Below, piece by piece: positions 23,154 through 31,390 of a stretch of DNA of 38,094 nt. Numbering within the stretch: the first letter of the stretch is position 1; each line of letters begins with the position of its first letter. Where the stretch lies: assembly GCA_038064295.1 (NCBI GenBank), contig JBBTTH010000021.1, positions 1 through 38,094 on the forward strand, given 5' to 3'. Origin of the DNA: Patescibacteria group bacterium. GTDB lineage: Bacteria; Patescibacteriota; Minisyncoccia; Phycocordibacterales; UBA6065. The notes beneath the pieces are model-generated. The model worked only from the letters and a program-made list of their open reading frames with translations. It did not search any database and was not told the origin of the DNA. The translations under genes were made by a program, and so were the position numbers.

Positions 23154-25502
23154 ATGTCAAAGAAAATCGCAATTTCTGTCGTCTCGGTAGCGTTCCTCAT
23201 TAGCTTGTTTGGATTCGGCGCAGTCCGTTACGCGTCCGCTCAAAATCTGACCTTCACTCAAATCATAGATATTCTCATTGCCATAGGTGTCATTCCCGCC
23301 GACAAAATAGCGGCCGCCAGGGCGGCAGTGGCTGGTATTTCTGTCACTCCGTCTGCCACATCTGCCGCGACTACAACTACTCCATATACAACCGGCGTGC
23401 AATGCTCATCATCGGATTTCAGTACTGCTTTCAATGCGGCGGCCGTCAGGTTTGATATCGGAACTAACCCGGGCGGTAATTTCCAGCTTGTCACAGCCGG
23501 CAACGGTCGGACCGGGTCGGGCTATAAAGAATGCAAAATCTGGGTAGACTATTCCGTGCCCGCATTACAGCTCGGGAATGGCATATTCGTTGGCCCCGGG
23601 ACCAAAGAAGGCAACACTCTGGGTTTCGGCTCACGGGTAGTAGCTACCCCCTCGCAGACGGCACAGACGGTAACAAATACAAATAATCTGATTAAAGTTC
23701 TTTCACCAAACGGAGGGGAGACGTATAAAGTTGGCGACAGACTTTCTGTCAGTTGGACTCCTGGTGCTCCAGGTGTTCGTCAGATATCTCTTAACAGAGC
23801 GGACGGATATTCAAACAATATCATGGCTGTCGAAACAGCTAATACTTCAGGCATATTTTCTTTAACCATACCTTTAAATTTCCCTGCCGGACAGTATAAG
23901 GCTGTAATGTATTATTCTGATGCTGGACAAAATGAAGCTGACAGAAGTGATAATTATTTCACCATCACCGCTCCGCAGACGATAGTTCAACCTTCGGTCA
24001 CTATAACTGCACCTATAAGTGGACAAACATTAACACAAGGTCAGCAATACACGATCAGGTGGTCAAACGCCAATTTGCCATCAAACGCCGAACTTATTAT
24101 CATTGCTTTCAACGGTCCGACAGCCGATGGTATATATCCAAACAGAGTGATTGTTGGTAACTTGTCACCTAATACAACTTCGTATACATGGATTGTACAA
24201 TCTAATGATGGTACATGGCAAACGGGCCTCGGTGTAGGACCATTCACTCAAAAACTTGCACGTTTTTTAGGTATTGATATTGCGCATGCCTCGAGTAATC
24301 AATATACGATTGGTATTATTGCATCCAACAGCGATGTTGGACAATTAACGAAGGGTTCAAGCGGTGTTTTCGCTATCACCGCTCCGCTGACACAAACGAT
24401 CAGTGTAACCGCTCCTTTGGCCGGACAAGAATATAAGACTGGTAGTTATATACCGGTCAGTTTTACGTGGCCGGTCTATGGAAATACATATACTATCCAA
24501 TTGAGAGGAAAGGGCTATTCTTATGATCTGGGCACTGTCTATATAAATACAGCCACGGATCAGAGCAAAAACTCCTTCGTTCTACCGTCGTCGGTTCCAT
24601 CTTATGTTGGGTCGTTCAATGTGGTTATAATGTCTGGCAGAAACGACATAGCATATTCCCCAAGCTTCGCCATCACCGCTCCGCAGACGACAGTTGACAA
24701 CAACAAACCCGTAGGCTACCTGGATAACGTCAGCTGTAGCCTGTTTGCCGGCTGGGCCTATGACCCTGACGACACTTCCGCCCAGATAGGAGTCCATTTC
24801 TATGCCGGCGGCAGGGCGGGTGAAGGGGGCGTATTTATCGGCAGTGCAGTAGCAAACGTCTCCCGTCCCGACGTCAATTCAACCACGGGCGTGACAGGCA
24901 ACCACGGTTTCAGTTTCACCGTTCCACCATCATTGCATGACGGCGCCACTCACGCTATTTACGCCTACGGCATAAACAGCACCGGTTCCACCAATTTGAA
25001 CAATTCACTTCTGACACAGAGTCCGCTTTCCATGGGTGGATGTGCTACTCCAGCGGCAGTAGCTCCTGCCGCCACAGGCCCCATCATTAATTCATTTTCC
25101 GTTTCACCTCCATCCGTGACCAGGGGAGAGAACGTAACATGGAGCGGAACCGCGACGACACAGTCCGGGTATTGCATTACAAAACACAGAGCGATTGTCG
25201 TCGGTTCTCAAACGCCTTCTTGGAGGCTTGCTGACGAGCGTTGGACGGACTTGGGTTGCGTGCAATCGGTTCCGCTATCAGCTACTGTTAACACGGCTGT
25301 CAATCCTTATTCTTTCTACGAAGGCAAAACTTCATACGAAGTAATATGGCAGATAAAGGATTCAGCTGACAAAACCGCGTCAATGACTCAAACCGTCACG
25401 GTCAACCCCGCTCCGACAAGCATGAACACCGTCCAATCCAATCTCGGTAACGTATCCATATCATTTGAAGAGATTATGAGATTGATTAACGCTCTGAGGT
25501 AG
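23154..25502 (+). CDS. 782-aa secreted or cell-surface protein with tandem Ig-like modules.
   Basis: The signal peptide is MSKKIAISVVSVAFLISLFGFGAVRYASA. Repeated modules are delimited by ITAPQT / ITAPLTQT and each contains SP.GGE.YK.G..L.VSW-type strands. The C-terminal part carries a GWAYDPDD...HGFSF module and one further Ig-like domain. Confidence 0.8.
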   Translation: MSKKIAISVVSVAFLISLFGFGAVRYASAQNLTFTQIIDILIAIGVIPADKIAAARAAVAGISVTPSATSAATTTTPYTTGVQCSSSDFSTAFNAAAVRFDIGTNPGGNFQLVTAGNGRTGSGYKECKIWVDYSVPALQLGNGIFVGPGTKEGNTLGFGSRVVATPSQTAQTVTNTNNLIKVLSPNGGETYKVGDRLSVSWTPGAPGVRQISLNRADGYSNNIMAVETANTSGIFSLTIPLNFPAGQYKAVMYYSDAGQNEADRSDNYFTITAPQTIVQPSVTITAPISGQTLTQGQQYTIRWSNANLPSNAELIIIAFNGPTADGIYPNRVIVGNLSPNTTSYTWIVQSNDGTWQTGLGVGPFTQKLARFLGIDIAHASSNQYTIGIIASNSDVGQLTKGSSGVFAITAPLTQTISVTAPLAGQEYKTGSYIPVSFTWPVYGNTYTIQLRGKGYSYDLGTVYINTATDQSKNSFVLPSSVPSYVGSFNVVIMSGRNDIAYSPSFAITAPQTTVDNNKPVGYLDNVSCSLFAGWAYDPDDTSAQIGVHFYAGGRAGEGGVFIGSAVANVSRPDVNSTTGVTGNHGFSFTVPPSLHDGATHAIYAYGINSTGSTNLNNSLLTQSPLSMGGCATPAAVAPAATGPIINSFSVSPPSVTRGENVTWSGTATTQSGYCITKHRAIVVGSQTPSWRLADERWTDLGCVQSVPLSATVNTAVNPYSFYEGKTSYEVIWQIKDSADKTASMTQTVTVNPAPTSMNTVQSNLGNVSISFEEIMRLINALR

Positions 25503-25510
25503 ACATAGCA

Positions 25511-25611
25511 AAAAAAGCGGCGGATACAAAGTTCTCGTCGCTCGGAGAGGGACCCTTGGAAAGGGCACCCCTTGCTCCTCGCGACTCGAACTTTGTATCC
25601 GCCGCTTTTTT
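25511..25611 (+). terminator. 101-nt extended hairpin flanked by A6/T6 runs (family 1, copy 1). It is terminator-like and bidirectional.
   Basis: The arm aaaaaagcggcggatacaaagttc (25511-25534) pairs perfectly with 25588-25611. Pairing continues through gtcgc/gcgac, ggag/ctcc and the apical ccctt-gga-aaggg. Confidence 0.7.
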
Positions 25612-25617
25612 ATTTTA

Positions 25618-25645
25618 TTGACTTTGTTCGGCGGTCTGCTATGAT
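25618..25645 (+). promoter_or_regulatory. Putative promoter TTGACT-16-TATGAT for tuf.
   Basis: It starts 7 nt after the hairpin T-run and lies about 60 nt upstream of the tuf ATG. Confidence 0.5.
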
Positions 25646-25707
25646 ACGCAGTACGCATTTTGCGCGCTTTTTTAGTTATTTATTCATTATTATTTATTTC
25701 TTTATTT

Positions 25708-26901
25708 ATGGCAGAATTCAATAGAACAAAGCCTCACGTAAACGTCGGTACTATCGGTCACGTTGACCACGGCAAGACCACTCTCACCGCTGCTATCCTG
25801 GCGACTCAAGCTCGAGATGGCTTGGCCAATCCAAAAGCCTATGCCGATATCGCCAAAGGAGGTACCATTCGCGACGCTTCTAAAATCGTGACGATCTCTC
25901 TCGCTCACGTTGAATATGAATCAGACACCCGTCACTATGCTCACATAGACTGTCCCGGGCATGCCGACTTCATAAAAAACATGATCACCGGCGCGGCTCA
26001 AATGGACGGCGCTATACTGGTGGTTTCCGCCATTGACGGTCCTATGCCTCAGACGCGCGAACACATTCTCCTGGCAAAACAAGTCGGTGTGCCTCGCATC
26101 GTCGTCTTCCTCAACAAATGCGACGCCGTGGACGACAAAGATTTGATTGATTTGGTAGAAGGCGAAGTGCGCGACCTCCTCACAAAATATGGTTTTGACG
26201 GGGCAAATACTCCGGTTATCCGCGGTTCCGCTCTCAAATCTCTGGAAGCCAAAGACAACAAAAACCCATGGACGACAAAGATAAAGGAATTAATAACTGT
26301 TTTGGACAGCTACATTCCTATGCCTGTGCGCGCAACAGACAAACCTTTTCTCATGCCCATAGAAGACATCTTCTCTATAGAGGGACGCGGTACGGTAGTT
26401 ACGGGTCGTATAGAACGCGGTCAAGTAAAAATCGGCGATGAAGTGGAAATCGTCGGTATAGAACCTACTTCAAAGACCGTCATTACCGGTATAGAAATGT
26501 TCAACAAACAGCTCCAATCAGGTATGGCGGGAGACAATGCTGGAGTATTGCTTCGCGGTACGGCCAAAGACGCTGTCCATCGCGGACAAGTTTTGGCAAA
26601 GCCGGGCACGACTACTCCCCATATAGAATTTGAAGCCGAGGTGCTCATCTTGAAGAAGGAGGAAGGGGGCCGACACACACCATTCTTCAATGGTTACAAA
26701 CCGCAGTTTTATGTACGCACGACCGATGTTACAGGTGAAGTAACCCTCAACCCAGGCGTTGAAATGGTCATGCCTGGAGACACCGTGGCATTCAAAGTAA
26801 AACTTCACGCTCCTATCGCTCTGGAAGAAAAACAGAGATTCGCTATCCGCGAAGGTGGCAAGACTGTCGGTGCCGGTGTTGTGACAAAGATAACGAAATA
26901 A
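25708..26901 (+). CDS. tuf: Elongation factor Tu.
   Basis: [33 protein letters not shown] and NKCD are present. The start is taken at ATG 25708. Confidence 0.97.
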
Positions 26902-26909
26902 GACTTTAT

Positions 26910-27302
26910 ATGGCCGAAGCAACAAAAGCCGAAACAACAAAGAAGGCGGTAGTCAAAAAACCAAAAGCAATAAAGGTGCCAAAAATAGAGGCTCCTGTTC
27001 CGCGCTTGCGCATCAGGGTTCGCGCTTATGAGAATAAAGTTTTGGATGCTTCGGTCAAGCAAATCATAGATACAGCTCTCCGTTACGATGTCGTGGTCAT
27101 CGGTCCGGTTCCGCTTCCTACAGAAATCAAAAAATATACTGTAAACCGTTCGGCATTCGTCTACAAAAACGCCCGCGAACAGTTTGAAATGAGGGTGCAC
27201 AAGAGGCTGATAGACATTCTGAATCCAAATGCCAAAATCATAGAGGCTCTGACGAATATGTCATTGCCTAGCGGGGTGAATATAGATGTAAAGATGATTT
27301 AG
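26910..27302 (+). CDS. rpsJ: 30S ribosomal protein S10 with a roughly 30-aa Lys-rich N-terminal extension.
   Basis: The core is LRIRVRAYENKVLD...GPVPLPT...FEMRVHKRLIDI. Confidence 0.95.
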   Translation: MAEATKAETTKKAVVKKPKAIKVPKIEAPVPRLRIRVRAYENKVLDASVKQIIDTALRYDVVVIGPVPLPTEIKKYTVNRSAFVYKNAREQFEMRVHKRLIDILNPNAKIIEALTNMSLPSGVNIDVKMI

Positions 27303-27310
27303 GGAAATAC

Positions 27311-27357
27311 TTGACTATAAAAAGTGGCAGGTATATGATAATTTCATACATTATCAT
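27311..27357 (+). promoter_or_regulatory. Putative TA-module promoter TTGACT-17-TATGAT with an overlapping operator-like inverted repeat ATGATAAT-N7-ATTATCAT.
   Basis: The hexamers are at 27311-27316 and 27334-27339. The inverted repeat is at 27335-27342 / 27350-27357, 20 nt upstream of the antitoxin ATG. Confidence 0.55.
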
Positions 27358-27376
27358 GTAATTTAATATAAGTATT

Positions 27377-27595
27377 ATGACCACTATATCTATACCCATA
27401 ACGTCGAAACAGGAAAGCTTCATCAAGTCCCTTATCAAGAGAGGAACGGTTGCCAACAAGGCTCATGCCGTACGTCGAGCCCTCGATCTCATGGCCGAGG
27501 AAGAAGTTGTTCTACGTGTGCTCAAATCTCAACAGGAGGCGAAAGAAGGAAAAATACTTCGTGGCAATTTGGATGATCTTGTAAAACTCTTCTAA
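27377..27595 (+). CDS. Type II antitoxin, probable ribbon-helix-helix (CopG/ParD-like).
   Basis: It is 72 aa. The N-terminal beta-strand TISIPITSKQ is followed by helices (..AHAVRRALDLMAEEE). Its stop is immediately followed by the toxin ATG. Confidence 0.65.
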   Translation: MTTISIPITSKQESFIKSLIKRGTVANKAHAVRRALDLMAEEEVVLRVLKSQQEAKEGKILRGNLDDLVKLF

Positions 27596-27853
27596 ATGAT
27601 TTCAATTTCTTATACACCATCTTTCCTAAAACAGGCGAAATCTCTCGAAAATGAGGTGTATCAGAATTTAAAGAAAAAAATTGAGCTGTTTAAAAATCCA
27701 CAAAATCATAAAGTTTTGAAAGTTCACAAGCTTCACGGCAGACTCGGTGACTGTTACGCGTTTTCTGTTACACATAGCACGAGAGTTATTTTTGAATACA
27801 CCGCAAAATCCGAGGTTTTATTTCATGACGTAGGTGGTCATGATATATATTGA
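27596..27853 (+). CDS. Type II toxin of the RelE/ParE superfamily.
   Basis: It is 85 aa. KLHGRLGDCYAFSVTHSTRVIFEY....VLFHDVGGHDIY fits the RelE/ParE C-terminal pattern (L.G....Y...v....R.i......v....vg.H...Y). Confidence 0.65.
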   Translation: MISISYTPSFLKQAKSLENEVYQNLKKKIELFKNPQNHKVLKVHKLHGRLGDCYAFSVTHSTRVIFEYTAKSEVLFHDVGGHDIY

Positions 27854-27866
27854 TATATTCAATCGT

Positions 27867-27895
27867 TTGCATTATTTTGGGCCTTGGTGTAGTAT
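27867..27895 (+). promoter_or_regulatory. Putative promoter TTGCAT-17-TAGTAT that would re-initiate transcription into rplC.
   Basis: Hexamers and spacing were read directly from the sequence. It lies between the toxin stop and rplC. Confidence 0.35.
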
Positions 27896-27980
27896 TTTTG
27901 GCACTGAAGCGATTGCTTCTTTTTAGTTTTAAAAGTATTTTGAGAGCCTACGGAACCCCCAGCTCCGCGCTCGCGCACAC

Positions 27981-28631
27981 ATGAAATTCATTCTCGGCAC
28001 AAAGAAGAATATGACACAGATTTTTGACGCCACCGGGCGGGCATATCCGGCGACTATATTGTCGGCTGGTCCTGTGATCGTGACTCAAGTAAAAACAACA
28101 GCAACTGACGGCTATGATGCGATCCAGGTCGGTTTTGGCGAACAAAAAGAGCAGAGGCTCGGCAAGGCTGTTGTGGGACACTTGAAAGCGGCCATTGCGG
28201 CTGGCGGTTTCGGTGCTCGCGGTAACTTTCGCTACATGAGCGAATTCCGACTGTCGGCAGAAGAAGTCGCAAAATTCAAAGTCGGTGATCGTGTTGATCT
28301 CTCAACATTTAGAGAAGGCGATTCTGTCTCTGTGCGTTCATTGTCAAAAGGCAAAGGTTTTCAGGGAGCCGTAAAGAGACACCACTTTAGAGGAGGCAGT
28401 CGCACTCACGGTCAAAAACATTCCGAGCGCGAGGTTGGTTCCATCAATGGTGGCGGCCGCGTAGGCAGTGGTCGTGTGGCCAAAGGCAAGCGCATGCCGG
28501 GGAGAATGGGCGGGGATATGGTCACGGTACAAAATTTAAAGATTCTACAAATTCATCCTGAAACAAATGAATTGGTCGTGCATGGATCAATACCGGGTAA
28601 CAGAGGAGTTCTGGTTTCTATTGTTGCTTAA
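27981..28631 (+). CDS. rplC: 50S ribosomal protein L3.
   Basis: ILGTKKNMTQIFD...GKGFQGAVKRHHF.GG..THG matches the L3 pattern. Confidence 0.95.
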   Translation: MKFILGTKKNMTQIFDATGRAYPATILSAGPVIVTQVKTTATDGYDAIQVGFGEQKEQRLGKAVVGHLKAAIAAGGFGARGNFRYMSEFRLSAEEVAKFKVGDRVDLSTFREGDSVSVRSLSKGKGFQGAVKRHHFRGGSRTHGQKHSEREVGSINGGGRVGSGRVAKGKRMPGRMGGDMVTVQNLKILQIHPETNELVVHGSIPGNRGVLVSIVA

Positions 28632-28640
28632 TTTAAATAT

Positions 28641-29393
28641 ATGACTAAAACAACAAAAGAAAAAAAAGTAGCAAAAATCGCAAAAACTTCAAAAATTGCG
28701 ACTGCAAAAACTCCAAAAACGGCGCATACTACGGAAGCTACCATTTATAACACAAAAGGCGCATCTGTCGGCACTGCTCCTCTTCCCGAAAAAATTTTCG
28801 GTTTGCCTTGGAATGCCGATTTGGTTCATCAAGTCATGCATTCCATGATGTCTAGTGCTCGCCAACCTATCGCTCATACAAAAACTCGCGGGGAAGTGCG
28901 GGGAGGCGGCAAAAAACCTTGGAGACAAAAAGGCACCGGTCGCGCTCGCCACGGTTCCACTCGTTCACCGCTCTGGATCGGTGGAGGTGTCGCTCACGGT
29001 CCCAGAAAAGACAAGAATTACGACAGAAAAATAAATAAAACCATGAAAACCAAGGCTTTCATGACCCTGCTTTCAAAGAAATGGAAGGATGGCGAAATAC
29101 TGTTTGTGGATTCACTCTCTTTTTCGTCCCCAAAGACAACCGAGGCAAAAACAGTTCTCGTTTCTCTGGCCAAAGTAGCCGGTTTTGAAAAACTTTCAAC
29201 AAAACCAAAGAACGCGGTATTTATATCTCTGGCCAAAAAGGACATCAATGTGGAAAAAAGTTTTAGAAATATCGGTTCCGTCTCTCTGGATGAAACGAGA
29301 AATCTGAATTTGCTGGATGTCTTGAATCATAAATTCATAATCATTGAGAATCCGGTTGAATCAATGAAAGCTCTGGAAAATAAAATCCAATAA
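28641..29393 (+). CDS. rplD: 50S ribosomal protein L4 with a Lys/Thr-rich N-terminal extension.
   Basis: GGGKKPWRQKGTGRARHGS matches the L4 pattern. Confidence 0.95.
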   Translation: MTKTTKEKKVAKIAKTSKIATAKTPKTAHTTEATIYNTKGASVGTAPLPEKIFGLPWNADLVHQVMHSMMSSARQPIAHTKTRGEVRGGGKKPWRQKGTGRARHGSTRSPLWIGGGVAHGPRKDKNYDRKINKTMKTKAFMTLLSKKWKDGEILFVDSLSFSSPKTTEAKTVLVSLAKVAGFEKLSTKPKNAVFISLAKKDINVEKSFRNIGSVSLDETRNLNLLDVLNHKFIIIENPVESMKALENKIQ

Positions 29394-29402
29394 TATAAAT
29401 AT

Positions 29403-29858
29403 ATGGCTCTATTTTGGCAAAAAGGAAATAAAGGGGTAGTTGTTGCAAAGCCTGAAAAGGCGATAAAAAAGCCTATGACAAAGGTTTCGGTAAAAATGCC
29501 AAAGAAATTGGAAAAGAAATTGCCTGTAAAGACTGAAAATTTGACCGAAAAACGCACCGCGGCTGTCGCCGGCGGGGTTATTTTTGAAAAAGGTTCGGCC
29601 ATCATAAAACCCCGTGTTACGGAAAAAGCAGGCTGGCTCGCCGAAAGAGGCGTTTACACTTTTGAAGTTTTGAAGAGCGCCAATTCACAACAAATCAGTT
29701 TGGCTATCAAGGAAGCATACAAGGTCACGCCGGTAAAAATTTCCATTGCTCCCATAAAATCAAAAACCATGTTTGCTCGCGGAAAATCTGGTAGGACAGT
29801 TTCCGGCAAGAAAGCTTATGTCTATTTGAAGAAAGGTGAAAAAATAGAATTTATCTAA
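29403..29858 (+). CDS. rplW: 50S ribosomal protein L23 with a roughly 55-aa Lys-rich N-terminal extension.
   Basis: IIKPRVTEKA...YTFEV...ANSQQISLAIKEAYKV.P matches L23, and it sits between rplD and rplB. Confidence 0.9.
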   Translation: MALFWQKGNKGVVVAKPEKAIKKPMTKVSVKMPKKLEKKLPVKTENLTEKRTAAVAGGVIFEKGSAIIKPRVTEKAGWLAERGVYTFEVLKSANSQQISLAIKEAYKVTPVKISIAPIKSKTMFARGKSGRTVSGKKAYVYLKKGEKIEFI

Positions 29859-29867
29859 TCAAAATTT

Positions 29868-30722
29868 ATGAAATCATATAAACCAACCAGCCCGTCCAGA
29901 CGTGGCATGCAGACCATAAACTTCAAAGAATACATCACAAAGAAAAATCCTTTGAAAGCTCTGACCTATGGTTGCAAACGCGATGTGGGACGCAATGCTT
30001 TCGGTCGTGTCACGGTGCGTCATAAAGGGGGGGGACACAAGCGTCTCTATCGTGAAATATCTTTTGCGTACGACAAACTGGATATACCGGCAAGCGTTCA
30101 GTCGGTAGAGTACGACCCAAATCGTTCCGGTTTTATCGGTTTGGTGGCATATCGCGATGGCGAGAGACGTTATGTTTTACTGCCGAAATCCGTGAAAGTC
30201 GGCGCCTCGGTTATTTTCAGCCCCAATGCTTCGGTAGAAGCCGGCAATGCTCTGCCTCTGAAGAAAATTCCCGTAGGCACGTATATTTATAATATTGAGT
30301 TGAAGCCGAAAGGCGGAGCCAAAGCTGCCCGCGCCGCCGGCATATTCGCTCAAGTCATAGGTAACGATGCCGGTTATACACAGGTCAAGATGCCTTCAAC
30401 GGAAATCCGCAGAGTTCACGAAGAATGCTATGCAATGATTGGTCAGGTATCAAACGACGAACACTGGCTCATCAATTCCGGCAAAGCTGGACGTTCCAGA
30501 TGGCTCGGTATCCGTCCGACTGTTCGCGGTTCGGCTCAAAACCCGGTAGACCACCCATACGGCGGAGGTGAAGGACGACAGGGCAGAGGTCTGCGCCGTC
30601 TCAAGACTCGCTGGGGCAAGCCGTCAGGCAAAGGCCAAAAGACGAGGACGCCAAAGAAATACTCCAATGTCTTTATTGTTGCTCGCAGAAAAGTTGGCAA
30701 GGACAGAAATTCAATTCAATAG
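29868..30722 (+). CDS. rplB: 50S ribosomal protein L2.
   Basis: RHKGGGHKR and VRGSAQNPVDHPYGGGEGR match the L2 pattern. Confidence 0.97.
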   Translation: MKSYKPTSPSRRGMQTINFKEYITKKNPLKALTYGCKRDVGRNAFGRVTVRHKGGGHKRLYREISFAYDKLDIPASVQSVEYDPNRSGFIGLVAYRDGERRYVLLPKSVKVGASVIFSPNASVEAGNALPLKKIPVGTYIYNIELKPKGGAKAARAAGIFAQVIGNDAGYTQVKMPSTEIRRVHEECYAMIGQVSNDEHWLINSGKAGRSRWLGIRPTVRGSAQNPVDHPYGGGEGRQGRGLRRLKTRWGKPSGKGQKTRTPKKYSNVFIVARRKVGKDRNSIQ

Positions 30723-30734
30723 CAAATCAATAGC

Positions 30735-30838
30735 AAAAAAAAGCGGCGGATATAGTTCTGCGCTACTCGGAACGGGACCCGCTCCCAGAGTCTCGCCCCC
30801 GTTCCTGCGCTGCTCGAACTATATCCGCCGCTTTTTTT
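30735..30838 (+). terminator. 104-nt extended hairpin flanked by A8/T7 runs (family 1, copy 2). It is terminator-like.
   Basis: The arm gcggcggatatagttc (30743-30758) pairs with 30816-30831. The inner helix is ggaacggg/cccgttcc. The arms are homologous to the 25511-25611 element, with compensatory changes. Confidence 0.7.
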
Positions 30839-30847
30839 GAAAAAAGT

Positions 30848-30875
30848 TTGACTTCTCCTAGACTTCTGATAAACT
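30848..30875 (+). promoter_or_regulatory. Putative promoter TTGACT-16-TAAACT followed by a roughly 150-nt structured leader before rpsS.
   Basis: It starts 10 nt after the hairpin T-run. The leader holds long-range pairing gctcgg..taggc (30888-) with gccta..ccgagc (-30989), enclosing the hairpins ctagg-gttaaa-cctag and gttgc-gcata-gcaac. Confidence 0.45.
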
Positions 30876-31033
30876 GTCAAAACCAGCTCGGAATAGGCAC
30901 TATGACTTATTTCTAGGGTTAAACCTAGATTTTTGTTTTCTGTAAGTATTTAGTTGCGCATAGCAACCATAGCCTAGACGCCCGAGCCGTAGTTTGTTTT
31001 GCAATTTACTGCAACCGCACGAATACAACATAA

Positions 31034-31390
31034 ATGACACGATCCCTCTCAAAAGGACCATACGTAGACGAGCGAGTGCTTTCAAAGATCGCAGGCAAAA
31101 AACCGCAGGAAACCGGGGTGATAAAAACATGGATTCGCGCCTGCCAGATTTCCCCGGAGATGGTGGGCTTTAAATTCGGGGTGCACAACGGTCGTGAATT
31201 CGTCGAGGTCCTGGTATCGGAAGACATGGTTGGACACAGGCTCGGCGAATTTTCTTTGACCCGCAAGTTTACCAAACACGGAGGCAAAATGCAGAAAGAG
31301 CTGGAACAGAAGAAAAAAGAAGGCGAAATCGCCGCCGCCCAGGCAGCAAAGAGCGCCGTTGTCGAGAAAAAAACCGCTGCCGCTAAATAA
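31034..31390 (+). CDS. rpsS: 30S ribosomal protein S19 with a roughly 30-aa Lys/Ala/Glu-rich C-terminal extension.
   Basis: MTRSLSKGPYVD...GVHNGREF..V.V.E.MVGHRLGEF matches the S19 pattern. Confidence 0.95.
   Translation: MTRSLSKGPYVDERVLSKIAGKKPQETGVIKTWIRACQISPEMVGFKFGVHNGREFVEVLVSEDMVGHRLGEFSLTRKFTKHGGKMQKELEQKKKEGEIAAAQAAKSAVVEKKTAAAK

Follow-up and report, generated by a model that had tools for sequence, protein, structure and literature searches.

A RelE/YafQ-like toxin and ParD-like antitoxin cassette at the rpsJ-rplC boundary of a Patescibacteria genome

Does a toxin-antitoxin (TA) module lying between the ribosomal protein genes rpsJ and rplC break the S10 operon, and could its dosage be tied to that of the ribosome? 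The question arises from a contig of 38,094 nt (C21, JBBTTH010000021.1; the whole contig is referred to here as the window) belonging to a groundwater-derived Patescibacteria assembly (G000; 494 kb, 90% complete), in which a gap of 678 nt (27303-27980) separates the two genes. The original prediction regarded them as normally adjacent, took the whole gap to be an inserted RelE/ParE-type TA module and proposed read-through from tuf-rpsJ into it. The promoters, inverted repeat and ORFs it had listed were all present in the gap at the places given (Table 1). Nevertheless, comparison with the other genomes of the family led to a different reading, which we consider very probable: a self-contained, autoregulated type II TA cassette of ~550 nt occupies the nonessential spacer of a pre-existing operon boundary. 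A literature search found no publications on TA modules in the S10 operon.

Table 1. Features of the rpsJ-rplC region in the window and the second RelE-like toxin gene of the same genome
Feature	Position	Strand	Remarks
tuf	25660-26901		Upstream of rpsJ
rpsJ (ribosomal protein S10, 130 aa)	26910-27302	+	Pfam Ribosomal_S10, E value 6e-30; last gene of the tuf-rpsJ unit
TA cassette promoter TTGACT-17-TATGAT	27311-27339	+	TTGACT 27311-27316, TATGAT 27334-27339; promoter scan 10/12; left edge of cassette
Operator-like inverted repeat ATGATAAT-N7-ATTATCAT	27335-27357		8-bp arms; overlaps the −10 and the predicted transcription start
Antitoxin, 72 aa, ParD-like, probable ribbon-helix-helix (RHH)	27377-27595	+	
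Toxin, 85 aa, RelE/YafQ-type	27596-27853	+	Putative ribosome-dependent mRNA endonuclease
Native rplC promoter TTGCAT-17-TAGTAT	27867-27895	+	TTGCAT 27867-27872, TAGTAT 27890-27895; host element, outside the cassette
rplC leader hairpin 1 (GAAGC-loop-GCTTC and U run)	27906-27924	+	Terminator scan; terminator- or attenuator-like
rplC leader hairpin 2	27944-27972	+	RNAalifold; just 5′ of the rplC start codon
rplC (ribosomal protein L3)	27981-28631	+	Pfam Ribosomal_L3; first gene of the downstream unit
Second RelE-like toxin	G000:C19:14944-15183 (L002:1495-1752)	−	Partner antitoxin at L002:1757-1987

The rpsJ-cassette-rplC arrangement is not a mis-assembly, since independent metagenome contigs bridge its junctions. 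Logan contigs from an independent 2025 metagenome study cover tuf-rpsJ-antitoxin (26392-27542) and, in the same study, toxin-leader (27566-27974) with zero mismatches, and a further one joins the leader to rplC (27945-28809) with three differences. Of the 678 nt originally interpreted as an insert, the cassette accounts for the part from 27311 to about 27860 (~550 nt); the remaining ~115 nt are the native promoter and leader of rplC. Metagenome contigs from other samples match the window either up to 27307 or from 27309/27311 on and then run into unlike sequence, which places the divergence between co-occurring strains precisely at the cassette's left edge. A 44-aa ORF at 27850-27984 was considered as a gene and rejected: conservation here is at the DNA level and reflects the promoter and leader, and G000 and another family genome, G012, do not share the reading frame.

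The toxin scored 30.0 bits against the NCBIfam model RelE_StbE (TIGR02385) over residues 4 to 80 of 85, a small margin above the cut-off of 27.9, and matched the YafQ_toxin (E value, 3e-4) and HigB models more weakly. A profile built from 33 homologues identified HigB, YoeB and the Helicobacter pylori proteins HP0894 and HP0892 in the PDB at E values of ~1e-3. When the AF2 model of the toxin (pLDDT 93.8) was searched with Foldseek, the best matches were HP0894, HP0892, YafQ, YoeB and RelE, all with a probability of 1.0 and TM scores of 0.6 to 0.8. Altogether 39 PDB entries matched at an E value of ≤1e-3; 38 of these were RelE-superfamily toxins, mostly mRNases and including HigB and one entry labelled YoeB/ParE, and the 39th was an unrelated insecticidal toxin. 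The toxin is thus modeled with the fold of a RelE/YafQ/YoeB-type mRNase, in agreement with the RelE part of the original RelE/ParE-type prediction, and mRNase activity is predicted for it. The alignment of the 33 homologues shows no variation at H44, R63 and H82, and K45 and Y85 are found in at least 90%. We take the pattern of H44, R63, H82 and Y85 to resemble the catalytic sets of YafQ and RelE, at the level of motif rather than of residue-by-residue superposition. Similar to the E. coli systems YafQ-DinJ and RelBE and to HP0894/HP0892 of H. pylori, the toxin belongs to the ~85- to 90-aa class with a RelE fold and a conserved His/Arg/His set, and a small DNA-binding antitoxin gene abuts it upstream, with presumed autoregulation through a palindromic operator. 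Its sequence identity to solved toxins is only 9 to 24%. PADLOC gave no evidence of a defence system: its single match was weak and concerned the RelE domain of a CARF-RelE model. A second RelE-like toxin of 85 aa, 36 to 39% identical to the one in the window (range across tools), is encoded elsewhere in G000; its partner is a different antitoxin of 76 aa (RHH_1; E value, 7e-10).

The 72-aa antitoxin matched TIGR02606 (E value, 1e-5; 25.2 bits against a cut-off of 46.2) and PF03693 (E value, 0.004; 18 bits against 21). As both scores lie below the curated cut-offs, it is called ParD-like here and is not filed as a member of ParD. Its profile detected Vibrio cholerae ParD2 in the PDB (E value, 0.002). 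The AF2 model (pLDDT 78) consists of an extended N terminus and two helices, and its best structural matches were RHH domains of ParD (rmsd of 1.6 Å over 48 aa, with weak Foldseek E values of 0.1 to 0.8), so that profile and model both point to the predicted RHH character. The N-terminal, putatively DNA-binding part is far better conserved than the C-terminal part. In its probable N-terminal RHH the antitoxin resembles those of ParD2-ParE2 of V. cholerae and ParD1-ParE1 of Caulobacter, with 28 to 29% identity to V. cholerae ParD2, and it differs from DinJ and RelB in being ParD-like, that is, a probable RHH with a long second helix. In contrast to the ParDE systems, its partner toxin classifies with the RelE/YafQ mRNases and not with ParE, giving a mixed pairing.

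ParD-type antitoxins classically pair with ParE gyrase poisons, and the toxin could accordingly be read as a gyrase poison of the ParE type rather than as an mRNA endonuclease. The best matches of the antitoxin are indeed ParD proteins from ParDE complexes, ParE2 is found among the structural matches of the toxin, and the second toxin of G000 weakly matches ParE_like. However, ParE2 ranks below all 38 RelE-superfamily structures, and family-model searches detected no ParE model matching the window toxin at an E value of ≤10, although the RelE_StbE, YafQ and HigB models did match. In addition, RelE/YafQ RNases typically have the His/Arg/His(/Tyr) set that is invariant here, with its GxH..Y motif at the C terminus; this set is not known from ParE toxins, and at 85 aa the protein is shorter than typical ParE proteins. 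A gyrase poison is therefore improbable, and the RelE/YafQ-type assignment was retained. Mixed antitoxin-toxin pairings are known for type II systems; the pair of a RelE toxin and a ParD-like antitoxin is in itself routine and of a type already known.

Both TA genes are under purifying selection, given the low dN/dS values against the orthologues in the family genome G020 (antitoxin, 0.02; toxin, 0.09). Such values, obtained against a partner with dS of 0.3 to 0.8, argue against a decaying or domesticated remnant that has lost toxin activity and in which, for example, only the RHH repressor is in use. That scenario would suit a tiny, reduced genome in a family that lacks the classical protease Lon altogether, but both ORFs are intact, the putative catalytic residues are conserved and the cassette has been kept in several strains and samples; it is the least credible of the alternatives, and highly improbable. 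When G000 27377-27853 was compared with L042:1277-1750 of G020, dS was 0.29 for the antitoxin and 0.83 for the toxin, and the lower antitoxin value hints at a recombination breakpoint inside the cassette. Regarding proteases that could act on the antitoxin, no Lon was detected above cut-off in any of the 29 family genomes; a Lon_C match in G000 came from a ComM/Mg-chelatase-like protein and not from Lon. FtsH is present. ClpP occurs in 27 of 28 relatives and was not found in the 90% complete G000 assembly, and given its presence in those relatives, this absence is most simply an assembly gap.

The expectation that the cassette has its own promoter, with an inverted repeat overlapping the −10, was confirmed. 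When two mismatches were allowed, the inverted repeat was the single match in the 494-kb genome, and a control pattern had none. It is 100% conserved in G012, and 40 of the 41 nt around the operator are identical between the two genomes, compared with 59% of the coding DNA of the antitoxin and 56% of that of the toxin. The same promoter hexamers and spacing were identified in G020 and G012 and in cassettes from unrelated contexts (L054, L055 and L056), and the half-site palindrome TATGATA/TATCATA recurs upstream of homologous antitoxins elsewhere; more distant relatives retain the half-site at a different spacing. This promoter-operator footprint is the pattern expected of an autoregulated type II module, in which the antitoxin would bind the repeat.

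Other Patescibacteria carry the same promoter-operator-antitoxin-toxin unit in unrelated surroundings. Homologues forming pairs of 72 aa and 85 or 86 aa occupy three further settings: one between dnaJ and an ABC transporter, one behind a CYTH gene and one between gatC and ligA. The pairing is maintained across four unrelated contexts; antitoxin and toxin remain together at all homologous loci examined.

To place the cassette in its setting, rpsJ and rplC were located in the family genomes, with rpsJ found in 27 of 29. The two genes are adjacent only in G007, with a gap of 45 nt; in the other 26 of the 27 genomes they are separated by 195 to more than 4,000 nt (maximum, 4,166). G001 and G003 have gaps of about 196 nt, the remaining genomes with both genes on one contig have 294 to 4,166 nt, and in G017 and G026 the gap exceeds about 1,500 nt and is cut by a contig end. 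The usual layout in the family is rpsJ, a terminator, variable cargo and then the rplC promoter; in the alignment, an intrinsic terminator directly 3′ of rpsJ can be seen in nearly all relatives and is missing from G000. A contiguous S10 operon as in E. coli, with rpsJ adjacent to and co-transcribed with rplC and neither promoter nor terminator between them, was thus not found in 26 of the 27 genomes. The cargo varies by genome. In G000, G020, G012 and G026 it is the TA cassette that immediately precedes the rplC promoter, and ORF6N proteins are encoded in the slot of G020, G010, G023, G026 and G027. Further slots hold genes for haemolysin-III-like membrane (HlyIII), peptidoglycan-binding (PG_binding), LTD/PKD and integrase-repeat (INT_rpt) proteins or several ORFs without a family match. 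The assumption that rpsJ and rplC are normally adjacent is consequently false in this lineage: gaps with heterogeneous cargo pre-exist, and the rpsJ-rplC junction is a pre-existing operon boundary and cargo hotspot in this Patescibacteria family, not a broken operon. The ORF6N protein (170 to 220 aa) is the commonest cargo at this site in the genus; the G020 copy, the only one scanned, matched PF10543 (E value, 6e-30), and the stop codon of its gene (L042:702-1214) overlaps the −35 of the TA promoter.

The slots of close relatives differ in what they hold. In G020 a long hairpin is accompanied by the ORF6N gene and the cassette; only the ORF6N gene is present in G027, which differs from G020 by a clean, cassette-sized presence/absence. 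In G000, the cassette is the sole cargo and, as the post-rpsJ hairpin is missing, its −35 starts 8 nt after the rpsJ stop codon. In a tree of tuf, rpsJ and rplC, G000, G012, G020 and G027 group with 100% support and G026 falls outside. The TA proteins of G000 are nonetheless closer to those of the outsider G026 (81% identity for the antitoxin and 64% for the toxin) than to those of the sister G012 (53% and 45%). TA alleles have thus been exchanged at the slot between species, given this conflict between the TA phylogeny and the host tree. No transposase, integrase or flanking repeats were seen at the cassette, so that its mode of mobility has to be inferred, and exchange probably took place by homologous recombination through the conserved flanks. 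In G026 (L005:1-1280, C53), what precedes the cassette and the rplC promoter is not rpsJ but the 3′ end of a methionyl-tRNA-synthetase-like gene, recognized by reading its translation and not by a family search; rpsJ is found on a separate short contig, with ORF6N cargo behind it. Either the region has been rearranged on a larger scale or a contig end interrupts a long gap.

A post-rpsJ hairpin flanked by an A run and a T run was observed in G012 (L016:1385-1500) and G020 (L042:~425-640), and G000 has no copy in this position. The hairpins of G012 and G020 are visibly homologous to an extended hairpin upstream of tuf in the window (25511-25611), and the element looks like a repeated terminator-type sequence placed at operon junctions.

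The site TTGCAT-17-TAGTAT, which had been proposed to restart rplC transcription, proved to be a genuine rplC promoter, although it is a host element and not part of the insert, given that promoter and leader are conserved whatever the gap holds. Approximately 115 nt 5′ of rplC, comprising a TTGCA-17-GTAGTAT promoter and two hairpins, are conserved in 21 of the 22 aligned family genomes, and the promoter positions TTGC and GTA..AT are invariant or nearly so across the 22, regardless of gap content. The leader behind this promoter measures ~85 nt. Hairpin 1 is kept in most relatives, lost in G026 and has a broken U run in G018 and G023. For hairpin 2, RNAalifold predicted nine pairs, five of which show compensatory double changes; its support comes from this comparative analysis, as single-sequence folding of the leader and of the 3′ end of the toxin gene gave insignificant z-scores. 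An order-wide pattern search for hairpin 2 returned matches about as frequently as the reversed control and so carries no weight outside the family. An Rfam scan of 25300-31200 at an E value of ≤1 yielded two chance microRNA matches, neither the rplC leader nor the cassette being matched by any family. The leader is a candidate ribosomal-protein autoregulatory leader or attenuator.

These data also allow the proposed coupling to be weighed, namely that the module forms a functional part of the ribosomal operon, with read-through from tuf-rpsJ setting TA dosage along with ribosome synthesis and TA transcription in turn feeding rplC. The layout of G000 has features in its favor: no terminator lies in the 8 nt between the rpsJ stop codon and the cassette −35, no convincing terminator follows the toxin gene before leader hairpin 1, which is the first terminator-like site downstream of it, and the cassette sits directly upstream of the rplC promoter in four genomes. 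With no terminators in between, read-through from tuf-rpsJ through the TA genes into the rplC leader is plausible in G000. In G012, however, a long hairpin (about 100 nt, −58 kcal/mol, z-score of −6.9) follows rpsJ, as one does in G020, and because it lies between them, the cassette is insulated from rpsJ in both genomes. Moreover, most relatives have unrelated cargo in the slot, homologous cassettes adjoin dnaJ, CYTH or gatC/ligA elsewhere, and the cassette has its own promoter with probable autoregulation. Judged from these sequences, read-through coupling is possible in G000 and is not conserved in the sister genomes, and a functional embedding of the module in the operon appears unlikely. 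A stronger version, in which terminator loss in G000 brought the upstream tuf-rpsJ, the cassette and the downstream rplC leader into one transcriptional unit and the TA genes were co-opted as a regulator of ribosomal proteins, is very unlikely. If it were true, a ribosome-targeting toxin and its repressor would be dosed by the transcription of a translation factor, and the RHH antitoxin, as a roadblock on 27335-27357, would tune read-through into the L3-L4 operon.

The favored reading, a self-contained cassette at a pre-existing boundary, suggests the following mechanism. The family layout consists of a tuf-rpsJ-terminator unit, variable cargo, and rplC behind its own promoter and structured leader. 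Within this slot, the cassette runs in the order promoter, palindromic operator, ParD-like RHH antitoxin and RelE/YafQ-like toxin. Its promoter would give rise to a bicistronic mRNA, and the TAA stop codon of the antitoxin, which abuts the ATG of the toxin, could couple translation of the toxin to that of the antitoxin. Antitoxin dimers, alone or together with the toxin, would be expected to repress the operon by binding the inverted repeat that overlaps the −10. Should the labile antitoxin be depleted, with ClpP and FtsH as the candidate proteases in a lineage without Lon, free toxin could enter the ribosomal A site, cleave mRNA and arrest translation. The cassette moves as a unit and has been exchanged at the slot between species.

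In this family of Patescibacteria, the native S10 operon departs from the textbook arrangement in being split after rpsJ, and rplC is equipped with its own promoter and a covarying, uncatalogued leader, a candidate regulatory element in its own right. The rpsJ-rplC spacer serves as an exchange site for small cassettes, which annotations that call such gaps operon insertions should consider. Finally, the promoter-operator footprint, conserved across diverged TA alleles, provides a defined target for tests of autoregulation in an uncultivated lineage.
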